Shown here one piece after another: positions 6,321 through 20,505 of a stretch of 64,000 nt of DNA (its first letter is position 1; every line of letters begins with the position of its first letter). Position numbers and translations under genes: made by a program. The DNA comes from Methyloceanibacter sp. (GTDB taxonomy: Bacteria > Pseudomonadota > Alphaproteobacteria > Rhizobiales > Methyloligellaceae), in the NCBI GenBank assembly GCA_030064755.1, contig JASJEH010000001.1:35352-99351 (forward strand), given 5' to 3'. The notes beneath the pieces are model-generated. The model did not search any database. It was not told the DNA's origin and saw nothing but the letters and a program-made list of their open reading frames with translations.

Positions 6321-7646
6321 ATGAGCGGCGCAGGGCTCATCATTGCCGCGCACAAGTCCGGCGCTGGCAAAACCACGCTAACGCTGGCGCTGCTGGCCGC
6401 GTTGCGGCGCAAGGGTTTAGCGGTGCATGCAGCCAAGGCCGGGCCGGACTATATCGACCCGGCCTTTCATGCGCGGGCGAGCGGCCACGGCAGTGTGAAT
6501 CTGGATAGCTGGGCCATGCCGCCTGGCCTGCTCGATATCTTGATGGCCAGTGCCACGGCGAAGGCCGACATCGTCGTCGTTGAGGGTGTCATGGGTCTGT
6601 TCGACGGGATTTCTGGGTCTCCGGGCCGTACCGGCGCGACGGCAGACCTGGCCGCGCGATTTGGACTGCCTGTGGTCCTTGTCATCGACGTCACGTCTCA
6701 GGCGCAGTCGGCTGCCGCTCTCCTCCGGGGTTTCGCGACACACGATCCGGCGGTGCAGATTGCCGGTGTGGTCCTCAATCGCGTGGCGAGCGACCGGCAT
6801 GCGCGGCTGGTCTCGCGCGCCATCGAGGACTTGCGGATTCCCATTCTCGGCATGCTGCCCCGAGATGAGACCGTGACATTGCCGGAGCGCCATCTCGGCC
6901 TCGTCCAAGCAGACGAGCACTCCGATCTGGACGCCCATTTTACCAAGCTCGCTGACCTCGTCGAAGCGCATCTGGATCTCGATGCAATCCGTGCTCTGGC
7001 GCGCCCGCCATTGCTGAATGATCTTCCACAAAGCGGGGCTGTGCAGGGCTGTTTGCCCCCGCCAGGTATGCGGATTTCGGTCGCGCAGGACGCCGCCTTT
7101 ACCTTTCTCTATCCCCACCTCGTCGAGGGCTGGCGCGCACGCGGCGCGACCCTCGTACCGTTCTCGCCGCTGGCGGACGAAGGGCCGGACGAGGATTGCG
7201 ACGCCTGCTGGCTGCCTGGCGGTTATCCGGAGCTTCATGCAGGCGCGCTTGCTGCTTCAAGCCGATTCAAGTCTAGGCTCGCAACGTTTGCGGAGACGCG
7301 TCCCGTCCATGGAGAGTGCGGCGGGTACATGGTGCTGGGTGAAGCCCTCATCGACAAGGGCGGCGACCGCCACGCCATGACGGGGCTTCTGAGCCATGTC
7401 ACGAGCTTCGCGGACCGGAAGCTGCATCTCGGCTATCGAGAGGCGCAGTTGCTCGAGCCTTGCGGGCTCGGGGACGCGGGCTCAACCGTGCGCGGGCATG
7501 AGTTTCACTACACGTCCGTGATCGAGCCCGGTAGCGACGCGCCCTTGGCCATGCTGGCCGACGGCGAAGGCAATCCGTTGGGCGCGGCCGGCGGCCGGCG
7601 TGGAACCGTCAGTGGTACGTTCTTCCACGCGATCGCATCGGCGTAA
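6321..7646 (+). CDS. cobB: Cobyrinate/hydrogenobyrinate a,c-diamide synthase
   Basis: SGAGKTT P-loop, GPDYIDP, VEGVMGLFDG, LPGGYPELH, GECGGYM and HEFHY glutaminase motifs. Confidence 0.95.
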   Translation: MSGAGLIIAAHKSGAGKTTLTLALLAALRRKGLAVHAAKAGPDYIDPAFHARASGHGSVNLDSWAMPPGLLDILMASATAKADIVVVEGVMGLFDGISGSPGRTGATADLAARFGLPVVLVIDVTSQAQSAAALLRGFATHDPAVQIAGVVLNRVASDRHARLVSRAIEDLRIPILGMLPRDETVTLPERHLGLVQADEHSDLDAHFTKLADLVEAHLDLDAIRALARPPLLNDLPQSGAVQGCLPPPGMRISVAQDAAFTFLYPHLVEGWRARGATLVPFSPLADEGPDEDCDACWLPGGYPELHAGALAASSRFKSRLATFAETRPVHGECGGYMVLGEALIDKGGDRHAMTGLLSHVTSFADRKLHLGYREAQLLEPCGLGDAGSTVRGHEFHYTSVIEPGSDAPLAMLADGEGNPLGAAGGRRGTVSGTFFHAIASA

Positions 7647-7649
7647 CCG

Positions 7650-8669
7650 CTAGGACGTCGATTTTCCTGATACTTGCGCTTCTGCGAACGTGGCCATGCC
7701 CGTGTGGCAGGCAAGCGCCGCGCGCACGATCAAAAGCGCGACACTCGCGCCCGTCCCTTCGCCCAACCGCATGCCGAGATCGAGGAGCGGTGTCATGCCG
7801 AGTTCCTGCAACAGGAACTCATGACCGGCATCCGCCGATTTGTGGCCAACGCGCGCATGGTCCAGCGCATCGTCGCGCAGCACTTTGAGGGGGGCGACCG
7901 CCGATGAACTCACCATGCCATCGATCAGCACCGGGATACGTTTGTGGCGGGCCGCGAGGCACGCACCCATCATGGCTGCCAGCTCCCGTCCGCCGACTGC
8001 GGCGGCTGCCTGCAAGGGGTCGCCAAGCACGTCGGAATGGCGGAGCAGCGCCTGTTGGATGACCGCACGCTTGCGCCCGAACCCCTCCTTGCCAACGCCA
8101 GTCCCTGTGCTGGCGAAGCGCGCGCCGCCGCCGAACAACGCGCCGGAAATGGCCGCCGCCGCGGTCGTGTTGCTGATGCCCATCTCGCCGAGAATGATCA
8201 AGTCCGCATCGTCGGCCACCTGGTCATAGCCAGTCCCGACCGCGGCGAGAAACACCTCCTCGTCCATGGCCGGCGCCTCCGTGAAGTCCACCGTGGGGTT
8301 CCCGAGGTCGAGCGGCGTCACACGGAGGTTTGCGCCATTCGTACGTGCGAGCTGATTGATGGCCGCACCGCCGGACGCAAAGTTCGCCACCATCTGCTCG
8401 GTGACCTCGGGCGGATAGGCGGAGACCCCTTGCGCGGCGACGCCGTGATTGCCGGCAAAGACCAGGATCTCGCACCTGTCCAGGGTCGGCGGATTGCGGC
8501 CCTGCCATGCGGCGAGCCAGATAGCGAGCTCCTCCAGCCGGCCAAGTGAGCCCGGGGGCTTTGTCAGCTGGCCCTGTCGCTCAGCAGCCACGGCGGCGGC
8601 CGTTTCATCGGCCTCAGGGAGGTCCAGACAGGCAGCGCGCAACTGCTTGAAGGAAGAAAATCGAGACAT
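7650..8669 (-). CDS. cobT: Nicotinate-nucleotide--dimethylbenzimidazole phosphoribosyltransferase (CobU in P. denitrificans nomenclature)
   Basis: LTKPPGSLGRLEE, GNHGV, GEMGISNTT, MRLGEGTGA and MATFAEA. Confidence 0.93.
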   Translation of the reverse strand: MSRFSSFKQLRAACLDLPEADETAAAVAAERQGQLTKPPGSLGRLEELAIWLAAWQGRNPPTLDRCEILVFAGNHGVAAQGVSAYPPEVTEQMVANFASGGAAINQLARTNGANLRVTPLDLGNPTVDFTEAPAMDEEVFLAAVGTGYDQVADDADLIILGEMGISNTTAAAAISGALFGGGARFASTGTGVGKEGFGRKRAVIQQALLRHSDVLGDPLQAAAAVGGRELAAMMGACLAARHKRIPVLIDGMVSSSAVAPLKVLRDDALDHARVGHKSADAGHEFLLQELGMTPLLDLGMRLGEGTGASVALLIVRAALACHTGMATFAEAQVSGKSTS

Positions 8670-8722
8670 TTCAGCGTAGGGTCGCAATAACGGATGGGAA
8701 GAGACGCAAGGACTTAAACTGC

Positions 8723-9478
8723 ATGGGCGGCATTACCACGGACCTCAGGACAGGCCTAGCTTTTTGCACGCGGCTGCCTGTCACAACGGCTTCCGATGGC
8801 CGCCTGTCCGATGCCGCTTGGACCCTTCCCATTGCTGGTGCGGTTGTGGGCTTGATCGGCGCGCTCATCCTGTATGCAGCTCTGGCCCTTGGGGTGCCTC
8901 CATTTGCAGCCGCCACCCTCGCAATCGGCGCGACGGCGCTCACGACCGGGTGCCTGCACGAGGACGGGCTGGCAGACACGGCGGACGGCTTTGGCGGCGG
9001 ACGGGAGCCTTCGCGCGTGCTTGAGATCCTGCGCGATAGCCGGATTGGCACCTACGGCGTCATCGCGCTGATCGTCTCATTTCTGTTGCGCATCGGGACG
9101 GTTGCGAGCTTGGCCGCGTTGGGCGCCTGGCCCGCCATCTTCGCGCTGATCTCCGCGCATACAGGTGCACGGGCCGCGCTGCCACTGTTTATGCGGGCAG
9201 TGCCACGCGCCCGCGACGACGGCCTGTCGGCGGCGGCGGGCCGGCCCAGCGAGGGCGTCGTGGCAGGCGCCGCCGTGATTGGTGTAGCGGTGTCGCTCGT
9301 CTGTCTCGGCTTCGGCACGACGCTCGTGTCCGCGATCTTGGTCGCGGCGGCCCTTACCGTGCTTGCGCGCATGGCGACCCGAAAGATCGGGGGCCAAACT
9401 GGGGATGTGCTCGGCGCCGCGGAACAGGCCGGTGAAATCCTGATCCTGATCACTGCAGCCGCGGTTCTCGCTCCTTGA
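8723..9478 (+). CDS. cobS: Adenosylcobinamide-GDP ribazoletransferase (cobalamin synthase, CobV)
   Basis: FCTRLP, TGCLHEDGLADTADG, RDSRIGTYG and GGQTGDVLGA. Multi-pass hydrophobic protein. Confidence 0.95.
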   Translation: MGGITTDLRTGLAFCTRLPVTTASDGRLSDAAWTLPIAGAVVGLIGALILYAALALGVPPFAAATLAIGATALTTGCLHEDGLADTADGFGGGREPSRVLEILRDSRIGTYGVIALIVSFLLRIGTVASLAALGAWPAIFALISAHTGARAALPLFMRAVPRARDDGLSAAAGRPSEGVVAGAAVIGVAVSLVCLGFGTTLVSAILVAAALTVLARMATRKIGGQTGDVLGAAEQAGEILILITAAAVLAP

Positions 9479-9609: not shown

Positions 9610-9888
9610 ATGCGTATCGCGATCGCGGCTCTTGTTGTTCTCGGCGTAGCCTGGTTCGGCGTAGCTCCTGTACATGCCGTGCCACTGACCGGGACCGCCT
9701 CCCACACGCTTGTCGAGGCGACAGGACTGCAGGCGATTGATGTTGCGAAACGCTCGCGAAAAAAGGTGCGGCGTAGCACCACGCGCAAATGCGGGTGGCA
9801 GTGCAAGCGTTACTACCGCCCCTTCCAGTACCGCTATTGGAAGTTCTACTATCCATACGGCGGACCGCTGTTTTACGGACGGCGCTAA
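9610..9888 (+). CDS. Small putative secreted protein with a cationic/aromatic C-terminal half and a CxxxC motif
   Basis: Upstream GGAG. Sec-like signal MRIAIAALVVLGVAWFGVAPVHA. Fills the gap between cobS and the next gene. No family recognised. Confidence 0.7.
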   Translation: MRIAIAALVVLGVAWFGVAPVHAVPLTGTASHTLVEATGLQAIDVAKRSRKKVRRSTTRKCGWQCKRYYRPFQYRYWKFYYPYGGPLFYGRR

Positions 9889-9944: not shown

Positions 9945-11909
9945 GTGCGCCGCGTGACGCTGCCAGCTTCCGCCATAACCACCCGCGCCAACGCGCTTTT
10001 CGAGGCCAACCGCACCCGCCCCGGCGCACCGCAGACGCTGCCAGACCGGTTGTTCGTCGTCGATGTGGAGCGTCAGACGGCCACGTTGATCTTGAACGGA
10101 ATGGCCGCGGAGTCCTGGCCTGTCTCAACGGCCCGCAACGGCATCGGCGGCGAGGAGAACTCCTTCAAGACACCACCCGGCTGGCATCGCATCGACCGGA
10201 AGATCGGCGCGGGCGCGGAGTCGGGCGCTGTGTTTTCGTCCCGGGAACCCACAGGCGAGGTTTGGCGCGGCGAGGAAGCTGAGAGCGATCTAATCCTCAC
10301 CCGCATCCTTACGCTGGACGGTCTCGAAGAGGGCGTCAATCGCGGACCGGGTTTCGACTCTCTTGAACGCTACATCTACATCCACGGCTCCAACCACGAA
10401 GCGGAGATCGGGCGTCCCGCTTCGTGTGGCTGCGTCCGGATGAGCAATGCTGATGTGGCGACGCTTTTTGACTTGGCGCAAGAAGGCGACCTCATCCTGA
10501 TCGCGTCGCCCGAAGATCAGGCGGTCCCCAGCACATCATCGGGCCGCTTTCACTATGCGGGGCTCGGCGGCTCGGGCATGAGCGGCATTGCTCAGTTCCA
10601 GGCGATCAAGGGCGGCCGCGTGAGCGGCAGCGACCGGGCCTTCGACCATGGCGAGCGGAGCGCGGTGCGCGCTCAGTTCGAAGCGCTGGGTATCGGCGTG
10701 TACCCTCAAGACGGGAGTGGGATTGGTGAGGACTGCGCGGCCCTTGTGGTCTCGACTGCCGTCGAAGAAAACGTACCAGACGTCGCCACGGCGAGGGCGC
10801 GCGGCGTGCCCATCGTGCATCGCTCGGAGATGCTGGCCCATTTCGTTCGGGCGTACCGGTCCATCGCGGTAACCGGCACAAGCGGAAAGTCCACCGTCAC
10901 GGGAATGACGTTCGAGATCCTGCGCGGGTGCGGGGCCGATCCGTCTGTCATCACGGGCGGAGATCTTCCGGCCCTCCAGGCCGATGGTTTGATCGGCAAT
11001 GCGTATGCGGGCGACAGCGACCTGCTCGTGGTGGAAGCGGACGAGAGCGACGGTTCGTTGGTGCGCTATGCGCCGTCTATTGGGGTCATCCTCAATCTGC
11101 AACGTGACCACAAGGAAACGGATGAAGTTGCAGCCATGTTCGCCACGTTGCGGGCGCGCACGCGCGAAACCTTAGTCGTGGGGGACGATGCGAATCTCGA
11201 TCCGTTCGCTGGTGGCGCTATCCGCTTCGGCCTCAGCGAGCGCGCGGATATCCGCGCGGTCAACGTGGTGCACAGCGCGGCAGGGGCCCGCTTCGAGGTG
11301 AACGGCGTGAGTTTCACGATCCCTGTTCCTGGTGTTCACAACGTCACCAACGCGCTTGCCGCCATTGCCGCATGTGTTGCTGCGGGCCTGCCACTGGAGC
11401 GCATGAGCGGGCCGCTCGCGGGCTTCGCTGGCATCGGACGGCGCTTCCAAACGATCGGCCGCGCATCAGGCATCGAGGTGGTGGACGACTTTGCCCATAA
11501 TGCCGAAAAGATCACCGCGGCGATCCGGACAGCAAAGCTGCGCGGGCGCCGCGTGCTCGCGATCTACCAGCCCCACGGCTATGGGCCGACCCGGTTCCTG
11601 TGGGAGGACTTCGTCCGGACATTCTCGAGCGAACTCTCCGCGGACGACAGGCTGTTTATGCTCGAGGTCTTCTACGCGGGCGGGACCGCCAAACGGGATT
11701 TTTCCGCCGCGGATATCGTCGAAGAGATCGCGGCGACAGGCGCACGGGCTTCCTTCGCGCCGTCACGAGAATGGCTCGCTGAAGCGATCGCGCATGAGGC
11801 GCGTGATGGCGATGTGGTGCTGGTCATGGGTGCGCGCGACCCTTCTCTTACCGCCTTCGCCTGCGGCATTCTCGGCGCAATCAAAGGAGCGGCGCGTACT
11901 CGAGCCTAG
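9945..11909 (+). CDS. Fusion of an N-terminal YkuD-type L,D-transpeptidase domain and a C-terminal MurC/Mpl-like Mur ligase
   Basis: YIYIHG...SCGCVRM (10383-10439), then in frame GLGGSGMS, VTGTSGKST, EADESDGS, GIGRRF and DDFAH. Start uncertain (GTG 9945 or 9954). Confidence 0.85.
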   Translation: MRRVTLPASAITTRANALFEANRTRPGAPQTLPDRLFVVDVERQTATLILNGMAAESWPVSTARNGIGGEENSFKTPPGWHRIDRKIGAGAESGAVFSSREPTGEVWRGEEAESDLILTRILTLDGLEEGVNRGPGFDSLERYIYIHGSNHEAEIGRPASCGCVRMSNADVATLFDLAQEGDLILIASPEDQAVPSTSSGRFHYAGLGGSGMSGIAQFQAIKGGRVSGSDRAFDHGERSAVRAQFEALGIGVYPQDGSGIGEDCAALVVSTAVEENVPDVATARARGVPIVHRSEMLAHFVRAYRSIAVTGTSGKSTVTGMTFEILRGCGADPSVITGGDLPALQADGLIGNAYAGDSDLLVVEADESDGSLVRYAPSIGVILNLQRDHKETDEVAAMFATLRARTRETLVVGDDANLDPFAGGAIRFGLSERADIRAVNVVHSAAGARFEVNGVSFTIPVPGVHNVTNALAAIAACVAAGLPLERMSGPLAGFAGIGRRFQTIGRASGIEVVDDFAHNAEKITAAIRTAKLRGRRVLAIYQPHGYGPTRFLWEDFVRTFSSELSADDRLFMLEVFYAGGTAKRDFSAADIVEEIAATGARASFAPSREWLAEAIAHEARDGDVVLVMGARDPSLTAFACGILGAIKGAARTRA

Positions 11910-11924: not shown

Positions 11925-14900
11925 CTAGTTGCCAAGGAGCCCCGAGAGGAAGTCGTCGACGCCGCTAGCCCGGCGAGGACGGCGAGGGCGCGATTCCGAA
12001 TAGCGGCGCGTCGACGTCGTCTCGGTGAAATCCGCGCTTGCGATCGGCACGTTGAAATGCGCGGGATTCTTGAACAGCTTCGCCGCCATGTGACTGTCAA
12101 TGCCGTAGACATCACCGAATTCGCGGATTGAGCCGTATCCGTCAGCGATCGCCGTATTGTAGGTCATGTGGACTGGAATCTTCCGGCGAAGTGCAATGAC
12201 TTTCGTTTCTCCCTGGGCACGGGCAAACACGTCCTGGACATTGCCCATGGACCACCCCTTGTCCTCCGCAAGCAGGAAGGCCGCGAAGCGGGTCGGCTGA
12301 TTCACACGGATACACCCATGACTCAGCGTCCGCACGCGGTGCCCGAACAACTCTTTCTGGGTCGTGTCGTGCATGTAGATGGCATGCTTGTTCGGGAAAT
12401 TGAACTTGAAGCGGCCAAGCACATTGTGCGGGCCAGGATCCTGCTGGAACGTGTAGGCATGCACGTTCGCCGACTGCCAATCGACTTGGTCGGCATCGAC
12501 CGGTTTGCCGCCCCTGCTAACTTTCAGGCCGTAGCGGCGCAGCATTCTGTTCCGTGACTCGCGCCCCCCAAACAAACCTCCAGACCGCTGTGGTCCGCGA
12601 AGTTTGGGCGCGATGTCCTCTCTCACAATGGTGGGCGGAACCGTCCAGTTCGGATTGAAGACAATGTTCCGCATCGGAGAGGAGAAGAATGCCGTGGCGT
12701 ATTTCGCCTGACCCACAATCGACTTTTCTTCATAGATCTCGCGGCCGTTCTTCAAGACACGGAACTTGAACTCCGGGATGTTGTTCCAGACATGGAAGCT
12801 GCCGAGATCCGAAGGCAGCCAACGCCAGCGCTCCATGTTGAGGACGATGAGCTGGACCATGCGGTCATCATCGGGATTACGGCCAAGATCCTTCGCCGAA
12901 TCCCTGGCGTGAACCAATGCCGCATGGAGGCGCTGATATTGGTCGTTTTGGGGGTGAAGCGACAGGAGCGTCTTGTCCGGCGTTCCAGAGCCCGCAATCT
13001 CCGTCAAGACCGCTTTTGGATCGCGCGCCTTCGGATGGAAGTCGAAGAGCTTATGTGCCTTTGATGGCTTGAGCCGCCCCGTCTGCGCGTGCCGCGCATA
13101 TTTCAAGACTGCCGCGGAGACGGCCAGTTCCGCCTCGGCACGCGCTTCGTCCGTGGTCAGCGTTTTCTCAGTAGAGGGCGTCGCGTAGACACGTGCATCG
13201 AGGCCCCAATCGTTGGCATCGCGAATGGTTGCGATCACCGTCTTGGCCTTGGGTGCCAGGCTGTCGTCGGCCACCCACAGCGGGTCTTCGTCGCGTTCGC
13301 CATACAGCGCCTTGAGGGCCTCAACGTCAGCGGCCGCTAACTTGGGCGCAGAGGCGCCCTCCAACTTGGTCCGGACTGCCTTGATAACCGGATCAACGGG
13401 GGGCGGAGGCGGCGGACCGAGCTCAACAGACTCATCATCTGAACCGTCGTTGCCGGATTTGCCTGCTGCGAGAGGGGGCGTGCCAGGCTTAAGGGCCGCA
13501 AGCTTCGTATCCTCGCCGTCTGCCTTCGCTCCAGGCGGCGGCGACACGTCGAGGACAACGATGGCGTCGTAGGCCCGCGGGTCCAGAACAATCTCTTCGC
13601 TTGGTGCTTCGGTCGTCGCGCGCTGGATGTCAGTGACATCCGCTGCCTCGTTTGATGCGGCGATTCCGTCCGGCTTAGAGGCGGGCGCGATCGAGGCCGT
13701 CACATCACCGTCGCCGTCGGAGGAAGCGTCTTTGACCTGAGCGTCGGACTCCGTGTCGGCCTGTCGTTCCGGCGTATTCGCCGGGCTGATCATGCGCGCT
13801 ATTTCTGGCTTCGGCTCCGGTGCAGGCGGAAGCGATGCGGTGACGATTTCGCCATCCGCTGCGTCGTCTTCGCTGGCCGGGGTCTTCGCGTTGTCAGCGT
13901 CTGCCTTTGTGTCTGTCTTGGTGTCTGCGTCTTTTGAATCTGCCTCAGTGGCGCTGGCGACCTTGCCGTCTTTGTCGTTAGCTTCCTCGGTCTTGCTGTC
14001 AGCGTCGTCGGCGTGGGTTTCCTTGGCGTCCGCCGTCTTTGCGTCGTCGTCTTTGGCCTCGCTGTCGTCGGCGGTCGCGACGTCGGGGCTGTCCGCATCA
14101 GGTTTTGTATCCTTCGCCGTACTCGCCGACCCGTCGGCGTCGGCCGTATCCACCTCGGCTTTGGCCGTACCGTCTGCCTTTGCAGTCTCTGCGGCGTCTT
14201 CTGTCTTGTTCTTCTCTGTCTTGTCCTTGGCATCCGCCGATGCACTGTCGGCTTTCTCTTCCGAACCCGCACCAGCGCTCTTGATGTCGGTGTCTTTCGA
14301 CGGCTCGTCCTGAACGCCGGCGCCGTCCGTGCTCTTGGTGTCGGCCGCCTTCTTATCGTCGGCCGTCGCGGTTTCCGCTGATTTGTCCGAATCAGCTTCA
14401 GCGGCCGCCGACTCTGTCGCGTCGCCCTTCTCGGCCTTGTCTGCATCTTGTTCGGCCGTCTTCGCGGCAGAGCTGTCATCGTCTGCCGCCTGCTCGTCCT
14501 TCGCCGTTTCGGCTTTCTTGGCGTCCGGCTCATCAACAGCGGCGGTCTCTATGTCGGCCGGTTTCGTGTCTTTGACGTCGTCGGAAGTGGTCGACGACGC
14601 GGCCTTGTCCTGACCCTCAGCCTCTGGTGCGCTCTCCGCGTCAGCCGTCTTCGTTTCTGGCGGCGTCTCGTCTTCCGGCTTGGCGTCAGACTTGGCGTCT
14701 GCCGTCGTATCCGTTTCGCCTTCGGACTCTGCGTCCGAATCGGAAGCCGCGACCGCTTTGTCTTCCGCACCGCCAGCGGGCTCATCCGTTTCGGCTGACT
14801 CGGTCTCGGAGGCTTCGGCTTGTTCGGAGTCGCTGCCGGCCGCCTCGTTTTTTGCTGTCTCTTTTGGCTCAGGCGCCGTTTCGTCGGCGCTTTCCTTTAG

Positions 14901-15251
14901 CGCAGGCGCATCGGAATCAGATTGCTTTTCGGCAACACGCGTGGGCGCCGGCAAGGCCATAACGAGGCTTGCCACCGCTACGGTGCCAACCGCCAAATCG
15001 GCTTGGCTGTTCTTTGCAACGTCTGGAGAAACGGCCTTGGTGGACACGGCCGCGAACGTCCGGTCGGGATTGCGAATCGGCGCAACAGGCCGGGCCCGAC
15101 GCGACCTCTTGCGCTTGACGACCTTCTTACCGGTAAAGAGGCCGGGCACGCGGAACTCCGCCGACGCCGTCGTGGGAACGGCGCTCGTTCCGGCCCCGAC
15201 AGCCAAAAAGGCCAACGTTGTCAGCCCGATAATGGCAATTCGTCCGCTCAT
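11925..15251 (-). CDS. YcbB/LdtD-like L,D-transpeptidase with Sec signal and a very long acidic low-complexity linker
   Basis: LNMERWRWLP, NIPEF, FNPNWTVPPTI, QDPGPHNVLGRFKF, IYMHDT and LSHGCIRV. Signal MSGRIAIIG...TASA. Confidence 0.88.
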   Translation of the reverse strand: MSGRIAIIGLTTLAFLAVGAGTSAVPTTASAEFRVPGLFTGKKVVKRKRSRRARPVAPIRNPDRTFAAVSTKAVSPDVAKNSQADLAVGTVAVASLVMALPAPTRVAEKQSDSDAPALKESADETAPEPKETAKNEAAGSDSEQAEASETESAETDEPAGGAEDKAVAASDSDAESEGETDTTADAKSDAKPEDETPPETKTADAESAPEAEGQDKAASSTTSDDVKDTKPADIETAAVDEPDAKKAETAKDEQAADDDSSAAKTAEQDADKAEKGDATESAAAEADSDKSAETATADDKKAADTKSTDGAGVQDEPSKDTDIKSAGAGSEEKADSASADAKDKTEKNKTEDAAETAKADGTAKAEVDTADADGSASTAKDTKPDADSPDVATADDSEAKDDDAKTADAKETHADDADSKTEEANDKDGKVASATEADSKDADTKTDTKADADNAKTPASEDDAADGEIVTASLPPAPEPKPEIARMISPANTPERQADTESDAQVKDASSDGDGDVTASIAPASKPDGIAASNEAADVTDIQRATTEAPSEEIVLDPRAYDAIVVLDVSPPPGAKADGEDTKLAALKPGTPPLAAGKSGNDGSDDESVELGPPPPPPVDPVIKAVRTKLEGASAPKLAAADVEALKALYGERDEDPLWVADDSLAPKAKTVIATIRDANDWGLDARVYATPSTEKTLTTDEARAEAELAVSAAVLKYARHAQTGRLKPSKAHKLFDFHPKARDPKAVLTEIAGSGTPDKTLLSLHPQNDQYQRLHAALVHARDSAKDLGRNPDDDRMVQLIVLNMERWRWLPSDLGSFHVWNNIPEFKFRVLKNGREIYEEKSIVGQAKYATAFFSSPMRNIVFNPNWTVPPTIVREDIAPKLRGPQRSGGLFGGRESRNRMLRRYGLKVSRGGKPVDADQVDWQSANVHAYTFQQDPGPHNVLGRFKFNFPNKHAIYMHDTTQKELFGHRVRTLSHGCIRVNQPTRFAAFLLAEDKGWSMGNVQDVFARAQGETKVIALRRKIPVHMTYNTAIADGYGSIREFGDVYGIDSHMAAKLFKNPAHFNVPIASADFTETTSTRRYSESRPRRPRRASGVDDFLSGLLGN

Positions 15252-15704
15252 TCGTTGTCCCTCAGAGCCTCCGCGCGTCGTCCCCATATGTAAGCGGCGA
15301 CTTGGTGAGTTTGGAGAGGATCGCGCAAGATCCTAAACATAGTGGCAAAAAGGGCAGTTCCTTGGCTAATAGGACGTGACGCATCAAAAATGTGCCAGCC
15401 TTGTATCTTTCGACGGTTTCACGGCGGTGCCCCCAAGGTGGCGACAGTCGACCTGATGATTTCGTTGCCCCGCTGCCCAAAGATTCGGCATCTGCGCGGA
15501 AATGACCTGGATATCGCCGTGAACTCGATTTGATCGATACACCCTCGGGTGCAATACTTCCTGCGTTCAACGCAATTCCAAGTCCTTAAGAGCGCTGCTG
15601 CCGACGTAAGCGAAGCCTCGCCAGCGCGGCCCCATTCTTGCTTAAATCTTGGCGTTGTCCTTTTTGGCCCGCCGAAACCTTCACCGATAGAGAGGCATCA
15701 GCGT

Positions 15705-17480
15705 ATGTGCGGATTGTGTGGCGAGATCACATTCGACGGCTCGCCAGCATCGGTCGACGCCATTGAGGCTATGACGGGCACGATGGTCCCCCGCGGGCCG
15801 GACGCTGGGGGGATCGTCTCACGCGGGTCCTTCGCCTTCGGCCATCGCCGCCTGAAGATCATCGATCTTTCGGAACGCGGCCAGCAGCCCATGGTCGATT
15901 CCGAACTCGGCATCACGCTTGTCTTCAATGGCTGTATCTACAACCACAAGGAGCTACGCGCCGAGCTCGAGGCCAAAGGCTACCGATTCTTCTCCACGAG
16001 CGATACCGAAGTCGTCTTGAAGTCGTGGCACGCTTGGGGGCCGGAGGCGCCGACACATTTCAAAGGCATGTTTGCCTTTGTGGTCTACGAGCGCGACACC
16101 GGTCGCGTCGCCATGGGCCGCGACCGTCTCGGCATCAAGCCGCTCTACTACACGCTAAACGAAAAGCGCCTGCGCTTTGCCTCAACGCTGCCTGCGCTTG
16201 TTGCCGCGGGCGATGTGGACACTGGGCTCGATCCCGTGGGGCTCGCGCACTACATGACGTTTCATGCGGTCGTGCCGCCGCCGCATACGATACTGCGCGG
16301 GGTGCGCAAGCTCCCGGCCGCGACGCTCCGTGTGATCGAGCCCGACGGCAGCTTCAAGGACACACTCTACTGGGACCTTAGCTTCGAACGGAGCGCCGAG
16401 GACCTCGCGACGAGCGATGCGGTGTGGAAGGAACGCGTCGGCGCCGCGCTTCGCCAGGCCGTCGATAGGCGCATGATCGCCGATGTGCCTGTGGGCGTCC
16501 TTCTCTCTGGCGGCGTCGACTCCAGTTTGATCGTGGGTCTCCTGGCCGAGGCCGGTCAGCAGCACTTGAAGACGTTCTCGATCGGCTTCGAGGCCGCCCA
16601 CGGCGAAGCGGGCGATGAGTTCAAATACTCCGACATCATCGCGGAGCATTTCGCAACTGATCACACCAAGATCATGATCCCTACCGAGCACATGCTCGAC
16701 TCACTACCCGAGACGATCGCAGCGATGTCTGAGCCGATGGTGTCCTACGACAATGTTGGCTTCTATCTGCTCTCTCGCGAAGTGGCGAAGCATGTCAAGG
16801 TCGTGCAGAGCGGTCAGGGTGCGGACGAGGTGTTCGCCGGGTATCACTGGTACCCGAAGCTGGCGAGCACCAACGATATTCAGGCGGACTACAAGGCTCT
16901 CTTCTTCGATCGGGGGCGCGAGAAGCTCGCCAGTCATCTGAACGACATCTGGATGGCCGAGGGAGACGAGCCGGCTCGAATGGTCGAAGCGCATCTCATG
17001 AAGGCTGGCGCGGAGACACCGCTGGACCGGGCCTTGCGTATCGACACGACCGTGATGCTCGTCGACGACCCGGTGAAGCGCGTGGACAATATGACCATGG
17101 CTTGGGGTCTGGAGGCACGTGTTCCGTTTCTGGACCACGAGCTTGTAGAACTGGCCGCGCGCGTGCCGCCCGAGATGAAGCTTAAGGACGAAGGCAAAGG
17201 CATACTGAAAGATGTGGCGCGGGATGTTATTCCCTCTTCCGTGATCGACCGGCCGAAAGGGTACTTTCCCGTGCCTGCCCTCAAGTACATTGACGGCCCT
17301 GTCCTGGAGATGACGCGCGATGCGCTCTCTTCACAAGCCGCAAACGACAGAGGTCTTTTCCGATCGACCTATCTCGACAGTCTTTTTGCCGATCCGAAGG
17401 CGCATATCACGCCGTTGCGTGGATCGGAGCTTTGGCAATGTGCGTTGTTGGAGCTCTGGCTTCAGTCCCACAATCTCTAG
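15705..17480 (+). CDS. asnO: N-acetylglutaminylglutamine amidotransferase (AsnB family, NAGGN synthesis)
   Basis: N-terminal MCGLCG Ntn nucleophile, RGPD, GHRRLKIID, LLSGGVDSS, SGQGADEVFAGY and EARVPFLD. Upstream of ngg. Confidence 0.88.
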   Translation: MCGLCGEITFDGSPASVDAIEAMTGTMVPRGPDAGGIVSRGSFAFGHRRLKIIDLSERGQQPMVDSELGITLVFNGCIYNHKELRAELEAKGYRFFSTSDTEVVLKSWHAWGPEAPTHFKGMFAFVVYERDTGRVAMGRDRLGIKPLYYTLNEKRLRFASTLPALVAAGDVDTGLDPVGLAHYMTFHAVVPPPHTILRGVRKLPAATLRVIEPDGSFKDTLYWDLSFERSAEDLATSDAVWKERVGAALRQAVDRRMIADVPVGVLLSGGVDSSLIVGLLAEAGQQHLKTFSIGFEAAHGEAGDEFKYSDIIAEHFATDHTKIMIPTEHMLDSLPETIAAMSEPMVSYDNVGFYLLSREVAKHVKVVQSGQGADEVFAGYHWYPKLASTNDIQADYKALFFDRGREKLASHLNDIWMAEGDEPARMVEAHLMKAGAETPLDRALRIDTTVMLVDDPVKRVDNMTMAWGLEARVPFLDHELVELAARVPPEMKLKDEGKGILKDVARDVIPSSVIDRPKGYFPVPALKYIDGPVLEMTRDALSSQAANDRGLFRSTYLDSLFADPKAHITPLRGSELWQCALLELWLQSHNL

Positions 17481-17487
17481 GCATAGC

Positions 17488-19251
17488 ATGAGCACGGATA
17501 AGAGCAGCTTAGAAGGCACGGAGAACAGAGGCACGCCGCACGGGACGACGCCGCGCGCGGATCTTGCACCGAGAGGCGCGGCCCAAAGCAACGTCGCTTT
17601 CGACTGCGGCTGGGGGCGTCTCTTGTTTGGCCAGACCTTCGCCGATGCATCAGACTTGGCCAACTGCCTCAGGGCCGAAGGTCCGGGGCGCCGCGACATC
17701 GCCTTCTACATTCTCGACCCGCATGTCGTGTTGGCCGCCGCGCCGCAGGAATTGTTCTTGGACCCCTCCCATACTTACAGGCTCGACCTTAAGACCTATG
17801 AGCCAGCCGCGACCGCACCGCGTGGGTTTCATATCCGGCAGCTTGAGTCTCTTCAGGACGCTGAAGAGATAAATCGAATCTATTCGGCGCGGCGCATGGT
17901 GACGGTGGCGCCTAACTTTTTTTGGGAGAACCGCGATAGCGACGCGATAACCTATCTGGTCGCCGTAGACGACAAGACCAATACGATTGTCGGAACCGTC
18001 ACCGGTGTGCATCACCGCGACGCGTTCGGCGATCCCGAAAACGGGTCCTCACTGTGGTGCCTCGCCGTCGATACGCAGTCCACACTGCCCGGCATTGGCG
18101 AAGCGCTGGTTCGCAGTCTTTCGGAACACTTCAGGGAGCGCGGCTGTTCGTACATGGACTTGTCGGTCCTGCACGACAACGAAATGGCCATCACGCTCTA
18201 CGAGAAGCTGGGCTTCATCCGCTGGGCCACCTTCACCGTCAAACGTAAGAACGTCATCAACGAGCAGCTCTTCACCGAGACCTTCGATGACTATGACGCG
18301 CTCAACCCCTATGCGCGGATCATTGTCGACGAAGCCCAGCGGCGCGGCATCGGTGTCGAGATTATCGATGCCGAAGGCGGCTTCTTCCGTCTGACCTATG
18401 GCGGACGGTCCGTCGCATGCCGCGAGAGCCTCACTGCTCTGACTACCGCGATCGCTATGAGTATCTGCGACGACAAGCGGGTCACGCGGCGCATTGTAAA
18501 GGCAGCGGGTGTGCGGGCGCCCGAGCAGGTCACCGTTGACGAAGAAGACGAGGCGCGGGCCTTTTTGGGGCGCTACGGATCGGTCGTGGTGAAGCCAGCG
18601 CGCGGCGAACAAGGCAAAGGCATCGCCGTCGGACTGACAAACTGGGACGACACGAAGACGGCTATCGACTACGCGAAGACCCTTTGCAACGAAGTGGTCT
18701 TGGAGGAGTTCGTCGAGGGCGTTGATTTACGGATCGTCGTCATCAACTACCGGGTCGTTGCGGCCGCGATCCGAAAACCCGCTACGATCATCGGCAACGG
18801 CACGTCCACGGTACGCGAGCTCATCGAACGGCAAACAAAGCGGCGTTTGGCCGCAACCGGTGGAGAATCGGCAATTCCGATGGATACCGAGACCGAGCGG
18901 TGCCTGGCCGTCGCGGGGTACAGCTACGAGGATGTCCCAGAGACCGAAGCTTCCATAGCCGTCCGCAAGACCGCCAACCTACACACTGGCGGGACGATCC
19001 ACGATGTAACGGGCATCCTCCACCGGACCCTGATCGATGCCGCAGTCAACGCAGCGAAAGCAATCGAAATTCCCGTTACGGGGATTGATTTCATCGTGAG
19101 AACGCCGACCGAGCCCGACTACTGGTTCATTGAAGCCAACGAGCGTCCAGGGCTTGCCAACCATGAGCCACAGCCGACGGCAGCTCGCTTCATCGACCTG
19201 CTTTTCCCTCAGACCGTGCCTGCTACTGTGCGCAAAGCGCTTCAAATGTAG
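17488..19251 (+). CDS. ngg: N-acetylglutaminylglutamine synthetase (GNAT + ATP-grasp)
   Basis: CGWGRLLFGQTF, GSSLWCLAVD (GNAT), LNPYARII, VVKPARGEQGKG and FIEANERPGLANHEPQPTA. Confidence 0.9.
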   Translation: MSTDKSSLEGTENRGTPHGTTPRADLAPRGAAQSNVAFDCGWGRLLFGQTFADASDLANCLRAEGPGRRDIAFYILDPHVVLAAAPQELFLDPSHTYRLDLKTYEPAATAPRGFHIRQLESLQDAEEINRIYSARRMVTVAPNFFWENRDSDAITYLVAVDDKTNTIVGTVTGVHHRDAFGDPENGSSLWCLAVDTQSTLPGIGEALVRSLSEHFRERGCSYMDLSVLHDNEMAITLYEKLGFIRWATFTVKRKNVINEQLFTETFDDYDALNPYARIIVDEAQRRGIGVEIIDAEGGFFRLTYGGRSVACRESLTALTTAIAMSICDDKRVTRRIVKAAGVRAPEQVTVDEEDEARAFLGRYGSVVVKPARGEQGKGIAVGLTNWDDTKTAIDYAKTLCNEVVLEEFVEGVDLRIVVINYRVVAAAIRKPATIIGNGTSTVRELIERQTKRRLAATGGESAIPMDTETERCLAVAGYSYEDVPETEASIAVRKTANLHTGGTIHDVTGILHRTLIDAAVNAAKAIEIPVTGIDFIVRTPTEPDYWFIEANERPGLANHEPQPTAARFIDLLFPQTVPATVRKALQM

Positions 19252-19326
19252 GCGTCCGCGTACTACCCATAGGCCGATCCACAAGGAGCGCGAAGCGACA
19301 AGCGCCCTGAACGACAGAGCTGCGTG

Positions 19327-20505
19327 ATGACCATTCTCCATATCGATCTCGACTATCTCGCCGACACGCTTGAGACGTTTCTCAGTATCCCTAGCCCTAC
19401 GAGCTACACCGACAACGCAGTGCAGTGGTGCGGCCAGGAGCTCGACCGGCTTGGCATTCCATTCGAGGTTACACGCCGCGGAGCGATTCGCGCGGTTTTG
19501 CGCGGTAAGGAGCGGCGCCCGGCGCGTGCGATCGCGGCTCACCTAGATACGCTCGGCGCGCAGGTGAAAGCCGTAAAGGACAATGGCCGCCTTGCCGTCG
19601 TTCCTATCGGTTATTGGAGCGCGCGGTTCGCCGAGGGCGCGCGATGCACGATCTTTACCGAGCGCGGCAGCTACCGCGGCACCATCCTTCCATTGATGGC
19701 GTCGGGTCACACTTATGGCGACGACGTGGACGAGCAGGCAACCGGCTGGGCGCATGTGGAAGTGCGTGTCGATGCACGGTGCTCAAGCGCCGGCGAGGCG
19801 GCCAGGCTTGGTATCGATGTCGGAGACATTATCTCCATCGATCCGCAGCCGGAATTCCTGGAGAACGGCTTTATCTGCTCGCGGCACCTCGACGACAAGG
19901 CTGGTGTGGCGGTCATGTTCGCAGCGCTGAAAGCGTTGATCCCCGTGAAGGAACAGCTGCCTGTCGATGTCTATTTTCTATTCACAATCGAAGAAGAGGT
20001 CGGAATCGGCGCGTCAAACATCCTGACGGACGACATTGCCTCCCTGATCGCGATCGACAACGGCACGACTGCCCCAGGTCAGAACAGCGCTGAGTTCGGC
20101 GTGACCCTCGCCATGGCCGATCAGAACGGGCCTTTTGACTACCACCTGACGCGTAAACTGGCCCGCTTGTGCCGGGAAGACGATATCTACTACCAGAAGG
20201 ATGTGTTTCGGCACTACAGGTCTGACGTGGCCTCGGCGGTCGAGGCGGGCCACGACGTTCGCACGGCGTTGATCTGCTTTGGCGTCGATGCGTCGCATGG
20301 GTGGGAACGGATCCATATCCACGCCCTGCGTTCCCTGGCCGAACTCGTCACTGCCTACTTGCTCAGCCCGATTGCGTTCTGGCGCGACGCCGAGCGCGTT
20401 GGCACGCTTGAGGATTTCACCAGCCAGCCGACGGAAAAGGCGCAGCAGAAGCTCTCCTCGGATGTGCGCATGGATGAGATCGAAGACGAGGCCGTCGAAG
20501 AGTAG
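19327..20505 (+). CDS. M42-family peptidase of the NAGGN osmoprotectant cluster
   Basis: AHLDTLGA, SRHLDDKAG, EEEVG, AIDN and DASHG metal ligands. Third gene of the asnO-ngg cluster. Confidence 0.88.
   Translation: MTILHIDLDYLADTLETFLSIPSPTSYTDNAVQWCGQELDRLGIPFEVTRRGAIRAVLRGKERRPARAIAAHLDTLGAQVKAVKDNGRLAVVPIGYWSARFAEGARCTIFTERGSYRGTILPLMASGHTYGDDVDEQATGWAHVEVRVDARCSSAGEAARLGIDVGDIISIDPQPEFLENGFICSRHLDDKAGVAVMFAALKALIPVKEQLPVDVYFLFTIEEEVGIGASNILTDDIASLIAIDNGTTAPGQNSAEFGVTLAMADQNGPFDYHLTRKLARLCREDDIYYQKDVFRHYRSDVASAVEAGHDVRTALICFGVDASHGWERIHIHALRSLAELVTAYLLSPIAFWRDAERVGTLEDFTSQPTEKAQQKLSSDVRMDEIEDEAVEE

Follow-up and report, generated by a model that had tools for sequence, protein, structure and literature searches.

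A 64,000-nucleotide stretch of a Methyloceanibacter sp. assembly (GCA_030064755.1, contig JASJEH010000001.1; the whole stretch is called the window) contained one open reading frame (ORF) in which a YkuD domain was joined to a three-domain Mur ligase. The ligase module is a member of a large, undescribed sister family of MurC, and the fusion is likely to be a cytoplasmic trim-and-religate enzyme working in the manner of LdcA together with Mpl. Evidence for this reading came from the domain make-up of the protein, a conserved motif change, placement in a separate clade, a canonical murC elsewhere in a genome in which profile searches found no Mpl, and the coupling of the family to LD-carboxypeptidases. 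Judged from these sequence comparisons, the probable role of the new ligase is to return recycled peptides to the wall precursor in bacteria believed to be without this reaction. The first-pass annotation had tied the fusion to recycling, and this proposal was strongly supported by genome comparison, in which LD-carboxypeptidases neighbour the ligase or are fused to it.

The three Mur ligase models PF01225, PF08245 and PF02875 all matched the fusion protein above cut-off, placing the module in the Mur ligase superfamily. The annotation had also proposed that the module is neither housekeeping MurC nor typical Mpl, and both halves of that claim were borne out. The protein scored 306.5 bits on the MurC model (TIGR01082; cut-off 335.1) and, in two pieces, 106.5 bits on the Mpl model (TIGR01081; cut-off 388.7). 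The dcw cluster, on another contig, contained its own canonical murC (497.5 bits) in the order murG-murC-murB, reading DDYAHHPVE and QPHRYTRLQ. The annotation's refuting condition, that the fusion be the sole murC of the genome, therefore did not hold. The fusion gene itself sat outside the dcw cluster, between cobS and a YcbB-type L,D-transpeptidase (Ldt) gene. No match above the Mpl cut-off was found by profile search of the source assembly (3.0 Mb, 157 contigs, 90.6% complete).

MurC (TIGR01082; PDB 1P3D, 6CAU and 2F00) was the closest family by sequence, at ~35-40% identity, and the new ligase resembled it in its glycine loop, EADESD motif and overall length. It differed from MurC in Asn519, Lys522, Gly580 and Arg631, in the P-loop GTSGKST, in five indels, and in having Gly and Pro for Arg377 and Arg380. 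Motifs specific to Mpl have been given as (S/T)AFFDKRSK and EPRS(N/A)T (PMC3060825). Eight genuine Mpl sequences read EPRSNTMKM or EPRSATMKR, whereas the fusion ligase lacked EPRSxTMK and contained EADESDGSLVRYAP and QPHGYGPT. The new ligase also read EADESDGSLVRY where Mpl has EADEYD plus (S/T)AFFDKRSK, and QPHGYGPT where Mpl has EPRSNTMK. Shared with Mpl were the three-domain Mur ligase architecture and a relationship to MurC. Additionally, Mpl partners a cytoplasmic LD-carboxypeptidase, and the reaction predicted for the new ligase is the same.

The strings DDFAHNAEKI and YQPHGYGPTR, singled out by the annotation in the C-terminal domain, were both present (Table 1). In HMMER alignments with solved MurC structures they paired with DDYGHHPKEV and FQPHRYSRTR, respectively. 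His376, Arg377, Arg380, Tyr346 and His348 of Haemophilus influenzae MurC bind the incoming amino acid (PMC3060825), a list that agrees with the L-alanine (L-Ala) binding role the annotation had given to MurC residues. Arg377 corresponded to Gly545 and Arg380 to Pro548 in the fusion ligase, and Mpl has Ser and Met there; both MurC arginines are therefore absent from the new family and from Mpl. At the other L-Ala-binding positions, Phe516, His518 and His544 were kept or conservatively changed, leaving an incomplete set of MurC L-Ala residues. MurC grips the free carboxylate of L-Ala with Arg377 and Arg380. A peptide substrate would bring no free carboxylate to this site and would need space, and Gly and Pro would suit both conditions. 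Lys522 and Arg631 are candidate binders of the D-Glu and mDAP carboxylates of such a peptide.

The N-terminal ligase domain contained GLGGSGMSG, SGSDRAFD and PQDGSG. The annotation's statement that the ATP and UDP-MurNAc motifs (MurNAc, N-acetylmuramic acid) are intact held fully for ATP binding (GTSGKST, EADESDGS, DH, HNxxNALAA and GxxRRF) and for the glycine loop GLGGSGMSG. It was only mostly true for UDP-MurNAc, as the UDP-binding domain had a family-conserved PQDG in place of the His conserved there in MurC, which is listed as a uracil contact (His70; PMC3060825). Family-invariant columns included G117/G120/K121, E170/E173, D194/H195, R306 and D321/H324, among them the P-loop Lys and the acidic and DH motifs.

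Searching exhaustively with the ligase module gave 150 representative proteins; the majority were stand-alone ligases of ~450-470 aa with 36-63% identity to the query. The motif H-G-[FY]-x-P was found in 136 of the 142 representatives containing the region, and the preceding motif DD[FY]xHN in 104 of the 107 scored by a stricter motif search. The motif change thus characterises the whole family and is no chance variation. The consensus of the 71-sequence family alignment (A1) read SGSDRxFD, GTSGKST, EADESDGS, DDFAHNPxK, FQPHGFGPTR, IYYAGGT and GARD. All of the new-family motifs (DD[FY]AHNPxK, xxHG[FY]xP, YAGG and GARD) were present in the fusion, with NAEK for NPxK as the single variation. The fusion ligase scored 609.7 bits on the A1 profile, in comparison with canonical MurC at <=359 bits.

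In a 62-sequence maximum likelihood tree, for which the MurD of the source genome served as root, Mpl (SH-aLRT 100), MurC (98) and the new family (94) formed three separate groups. The fusion ligase fell outside the MurC and Mpl clades, where the annotation had looked to a phylogeny for its placement. The two former arginine sites separated the clades, with Gly and Pro in 39/41 and 38/41 members of the new family and Arg at both sites in 10/10 MurC sequences. Altogether, the family was separated from MurC by Ser313, Tyr375, Asn519, Lys522, Gly545, Pro548, Gly580 and Arg631, along with the five indels.

A scan of species genomes found the family in Sphingomonas, Novosphingobium, Altericroceibacterium, Qipengyuania, Rhodospirillaceae, Chitinophagaceae, Bacteroidales, Paludibacter, Fibrobacterota, Nitrospirota, Elusimicrobiota, Holophaga, Lentisphaerae and Kiritimatiellia. 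Databases labelled its members as MurC, 'glutamate ligase domain-containing protein' or 'L,D-transpeptidase family protein', and some stand-alone members that exceeded the MurC cut-off (338-352 bits) were named MurC by their sources. Two Elusimicrobiota loci (L054 and L071) kept DDFAHNPHK and had QPHAHASVQ or QPHAFTSVQ for QPHG[FY]xP, making this the second derived form of that motif for the substrate. No account of the ligase family, of a YkuD-Mur fusion or of an S66-Mur fusion was found in the literature covered, which did not include the primary paper on Novosphingobium LdcA.

Using the A1 profile, 301 alphaproteobacterial species genomes were divided by a bimodal distribution of hits (456-615 bits vs <=359 bits). 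The new ligase occurred in 36 of the 301, or about one species in eight, and a canonical murC stood alongside it in 34 of these 36 carriers. Two genomes that are unpublished (G040 and G240) contribute solely to the A1-profile and ElsL tallies, and no conclusion rests on either. Profile search detected Mpl in none of the 301. In a sample of 201 genomes of the phylum, Mpl occurred in 143, none of them alphaproteobacterial, and the new type in eight, all from Alphaproteobacteria; no genome combined the two. Caulobacter and Agrobacterium are said to lack LdcA and Mpl and probably to degrade recycled peptides to amino acids (PMC13046382, PMC9790009).

An S66 (LdcA-type) gene was present in all 35 carriers other than the source genome. 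In 29 of them it adjoined the ligase gene, co-directionally or divergently, across ~20 GTDB families. The LdcA model at E<=1e-15 matched 31 of these 35, and the remaining four had adjacent S66 genes on direct inspection. Among the 265 non-carriers, this threshold gave an S66 match in only 33, a number that may be an undercount given the four true neighbours the search missed. LdcA (S66; E. coli LdcA and PDB 3G23) is thus the usual partner of the ligase family in Alphaproteobacteria, and its role is the one predicted for the YkuD module, from which it differs in its unrelated fold and Ser-His-Glu catalytic triad. The S66 neighbour in Novosphingobium nitrogenifigens was orthologous (399 bits) to the N. 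aromaticivorans LdcA of PDB 3G23, whose activity is cited in PMC8689515. In locus L134 (genome G050) the S66 gene next to the ligase matched in two pieces with a gap and is possibly frameshifted or decayed.

Profile search found no S66 match in the source genome, at 90.6% completeness, which leaves the fused YkuD module as its candidate carboxypeptidase. The YkuD-ligase fusion was also found in other alphaproteobacterial metagenome-assembled genomes (MAGs), in Fibrobacterota and in Nitrospirota, and the ligase modules of these fusions clustered together in the 62-sequence tree. In metagenomic protein P0259, a new-family ligase was fused independently to a complete S66 LdcA module. The family has therefore been fused twice, independently, to unrelated LD-carboxypeptidases. 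A possible third fusion in G146 was rejected, its long open frames being GC-rich overprinting beside an ordinary divergent S66 gene.

The YkuD module carried its catalytic His and Cys in an HGS...SCGCVRM stretch, was fused to an ATP-dependent ligase and had no signal peptide, its translated N-terminus not being hydrophobic, all consistent with a cytoplasmic location. The NCBIfam ElsL model (NF040925) gave it 139.9 bits, under the equivalog cut-off of 270, vs ~18 bits for models of periplasmic Ldt enzymes. ElsL (LdtK) of Acinetobacter baumannii is a cytoplasmic YkuD-family LD-carboxypeptidase, likewise without a signal peptide, that trims tetrapeptide for Mpl in recycling (PMC8649774). The module described here differs from ElsL in being covalently joined to a ligase, and the ElsL paper mentions no Mur ligase fusion (PMC8649774). 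An ElsL-type domain was considered as a general partner of the family and rejected: it occurred in only three of the 301 Alphaproteobacteria (G040 being one), and the two besides the source genome had no new-type ligase.

In the proposed mechanism, imported muropeptides would first lose their sugars. The ElsL-like YkuD domain would then cut the terminal D-Ala off the tetrapeptide by LD-carboxypeptidase action. The ligase would activate UDP-MurNAc with ATP, as do all Mur ligases, and join the whole tripeptide through the amino group of its L-Ala, yielding UDP-MurNAc-tripeptide for MurF. The order of trimming and ligation is presumed, and trimming may act on either the free or the nucleotide-linked peptide. 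Untrimmed tetrapeptide is toxic once ligated (PMC8649774; also PMC13046382), a logic established for LdcA with Mpl in E. coli and for ElsL with Mpl in Acinetobacter, and this danger would keep ligase and trimming enzyme adjacent or fused. For the supply of substrate, the source genome encoded an AmpG-type permease (487 bits, above its cut-off) along with two genes each of the Amidase_2 and GH3 types.

Several observations weigh against this reading. AnmK was not found in the source genome, but that assembly is incomplete, as noted above. The new family lacks the Mpl-specific motifs and so is not Mpl by descent, and the YkuD module fell well short of the ElsL cut-off. The co-occurrence counts came from related genomes that are not independent, with the non-carrier tally possibly too low. 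Stand-alone members in Bacteroidota and other phyla had no carboxypeptidase or recurring partner within 2.5-6 kb. A further objection came from G057 and G229, complete genomes of 1.4-1.7 Mb from one GTDB family, in which a derived family member was the only MurC-like gene. Both retained other Mur ligase matches, probably MurD, MurE and MurF. Presumably, on this gene content, the derived member adds L-Ala; the loss of the arginines need not exclude that substrate, given that the only MurC-like gene of these genomes lacks them. It is probable that some members of the family can use L-Ala, which E. coli Mpl also accepts, though weakly (PMC3060825); the values given for Mpl are 260 per min with tripeptide and 0.7 per min with L-Ala (PMC3060825).

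The G057 and G229 proteins (loci L035 and L036) nested inside the new family in the 62-sequence tree, beside LdcA-paired alphaproteobacterial members. Their HG[FY]xP signature was lost (QPHTPFSA and QSHKPLSA), and in G229 an S66 LdcA-like gene directly followed the derived ligase gene. In these two genomes MurC may have been replaced by its paralogue. The published murC1/murC2 case of Frankia, in which one MurC type takes the place of another, was set aside as unrelated.

It is unlikely that the ligase takes a different amine or acceptor, such as L-Ala-D-Glu, the untrimmed tetrapeptide (with UDP-MurNAc-tetrapeptide trimmed afterwards) or a nucleotide sugar other than UDP-MurNAc. The C-terminal domain, with Lys522, Gly580, Arg631 and several inserts, is unlike those of MurC and Mpl and would suit such a substrate, as would the PQDG that replaces the MurC His. 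LdcA enzymes, moreover, also act on nucleotide-linked tetrapeptide. The partner LD-carboxypeptidases, however, yield tripeptide, which suggests that this is the intermediate the two enzymes share. The glycine loop and the N-terminal domain as a whole are MurC-like, and no accessory genes of another pathway recurred beside the ligase in the neighbourhoods examined.

We give a slightly poorer chance, and a small one, to the family being a MurC isozyme whose link to LD-carboxypeptidases reflects co-regulated wall turnover and not a shared substrate. Coexistence with a canonical murC in nearly all carriers and the family-wide replacement of both carboxylate-clamping arginines argue against an isozyme, even though MurC was the closest profile, some stand-alone members passed its cut-off, and the glycine loop and EADESDGS were kept. 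The derived members that are the sole MurC-like genes of G057 and G229 speak for it, but their loss of the signature suggests a later change of function. Two unrelated carboxypeptidase fusions and near-universal adjacency are also hard to explain without a shared metabolite. It is highly improbable that the YkuD domain acts as a genuine L,D-transpeptidase instead of a carboxypeptidase, exchanging the terminal residue of a cytoplasmic precursor (e.g., D-amino-acid editing of UDP-MurNAc-tetrapeptide) that the ligase supplies or consumes: its catalytic His and Cys are intact, some YkuD enzymes do carry out exchange reactions and the ElsL score is under cut-off, but ElsL was by far the best model and the interchangeable partner elsewhere, S66 LdcA, is a hydrolase incapable of transpeptidation.

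Beyond the fusion itself, the odds seem somewhat better than even that the family is a third class of UDP-MurNAc ligase beside MurC and Mpl. Such a class would close the recycling loop in many lineages said to lack it, would have been welded repeatedly to the lineage's LD-carboxypeptidase, and would have replaced MurC in at least one reduced lineage. The lineages concerned would be Sphingomonadales, Rhodospirillales and Methyloceanibacter-type Alphaproteobacteria, together with Bacteroidota, Fibrobacterota, Nitrospirota, Acidobacteriota, Elusimicrobiota and Planctomycetes-Verrucomicrobia-Chlamydiae (PVC) bacteria. If so, peptide re-ligation would be much commoner than thought, and wall recycling would have to be corrected in genome annotations and in metabolic models. 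In E. coli and Acinetobacter a toxic link between carboxypeptidase and ligase shapes beta-lactam susceptibility, and this would then hold for new groups as well. The family also offers a natural experiment on how a Mur ligase pocket switches between amino acid and peptide.

The layout of the fusion ORF is given in Table 1. A database copy of the protein (P0002) was 100% identical to it and 651 aa long, from which the true start of the ORF is probably at 9954.

Table 1. Features of the YkuD-Mur ligase fusion ORF (positions are those of the window).
Feature	Residues	Position	Strand	Remarks
Whole fusion ORF		9945-11909	+	654 aa from first GTG; translation without stops
YkuD domain, ElsL-like	35-186	10047-10502	+	Pfam PF03734, 66 bits
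YkuD catalytic stretch HGSNHEAEIGRPASCGCVRM	His147, Cys163	10383-10442	+	Aligns with the active-site stretch of B. subtilis YkuD
Linker SPEDQAVPSTSSG		10506-10544	+	Joins YkuD and ligase modules
Mur ligase N-terminal (UDP-sugar) domain	202-305	10548-10859	+	PF01225, 56.8 bits
Mur ligase ATP-binding middle domain	309-477	10869-11375	+	PF08245, 58 bits
P-loop GTSGKST		10875-10895	+	Middle domain
EADESDGS		11034-11057	+	Middle domain
HNVTNALAA		11337-11363	+	Middle domain
Mur ligase C-terminal (incoming amine substrate) domain	499-631	11439-11837	+	PF02875, 71.3 bits
DDFAHNAEKI	514-523	11484-11513	+	Family DD[FY]AHNPxK vs MurC DDYAHHPxE
YQPHGYGPTR	541-550	11565-11594	+	Gly545 and Pro548 at the MurC arginine sites
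FYAGGTAKRD		11670-11699	+	Family-invariant Gly580 where MurC has Glu (YxAGE)
MGARDPSL		11826-11849	+	Family-invariant Arg631 and two-residue insert; MurC GAGD

Directly upstream of the fusion gene, a 92-aa ORF without a Pfam match was found at 9610-9888 (+) of the window. An ORF with 33-54% identity to it occupied the same position in three related alphaproteobacterial MAG loci (L044-L046), where the order cobT-cobS-small ORF-fusion-YcbB was conserved. Convergent with the fusion gene, at 11925-15287 (-), was the gene for a 1120-aa YcbB/LdtD-type L,D-transpeptidase with Scaffold and YkuD domains, in which ~650 N-terminal residues had no Pfam match. The cobalamin genes at 6321-9478, directly upstream, encoded a CobB/CobQ-type amidotransferase, CobT (DBI_PRT) and CobS, and were seemingly unrelated to the fusion. 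Farther along, at 15549-20505 (+), genes for an asparagine synthase-type amidotransferase, a GNAT plus ATP-grasp protein and an M42 peptidase stood in a row, a layout that we take to be like that of the asnO-ngg operon for the osmolyte N-acetylglutaminylglutamine amide.

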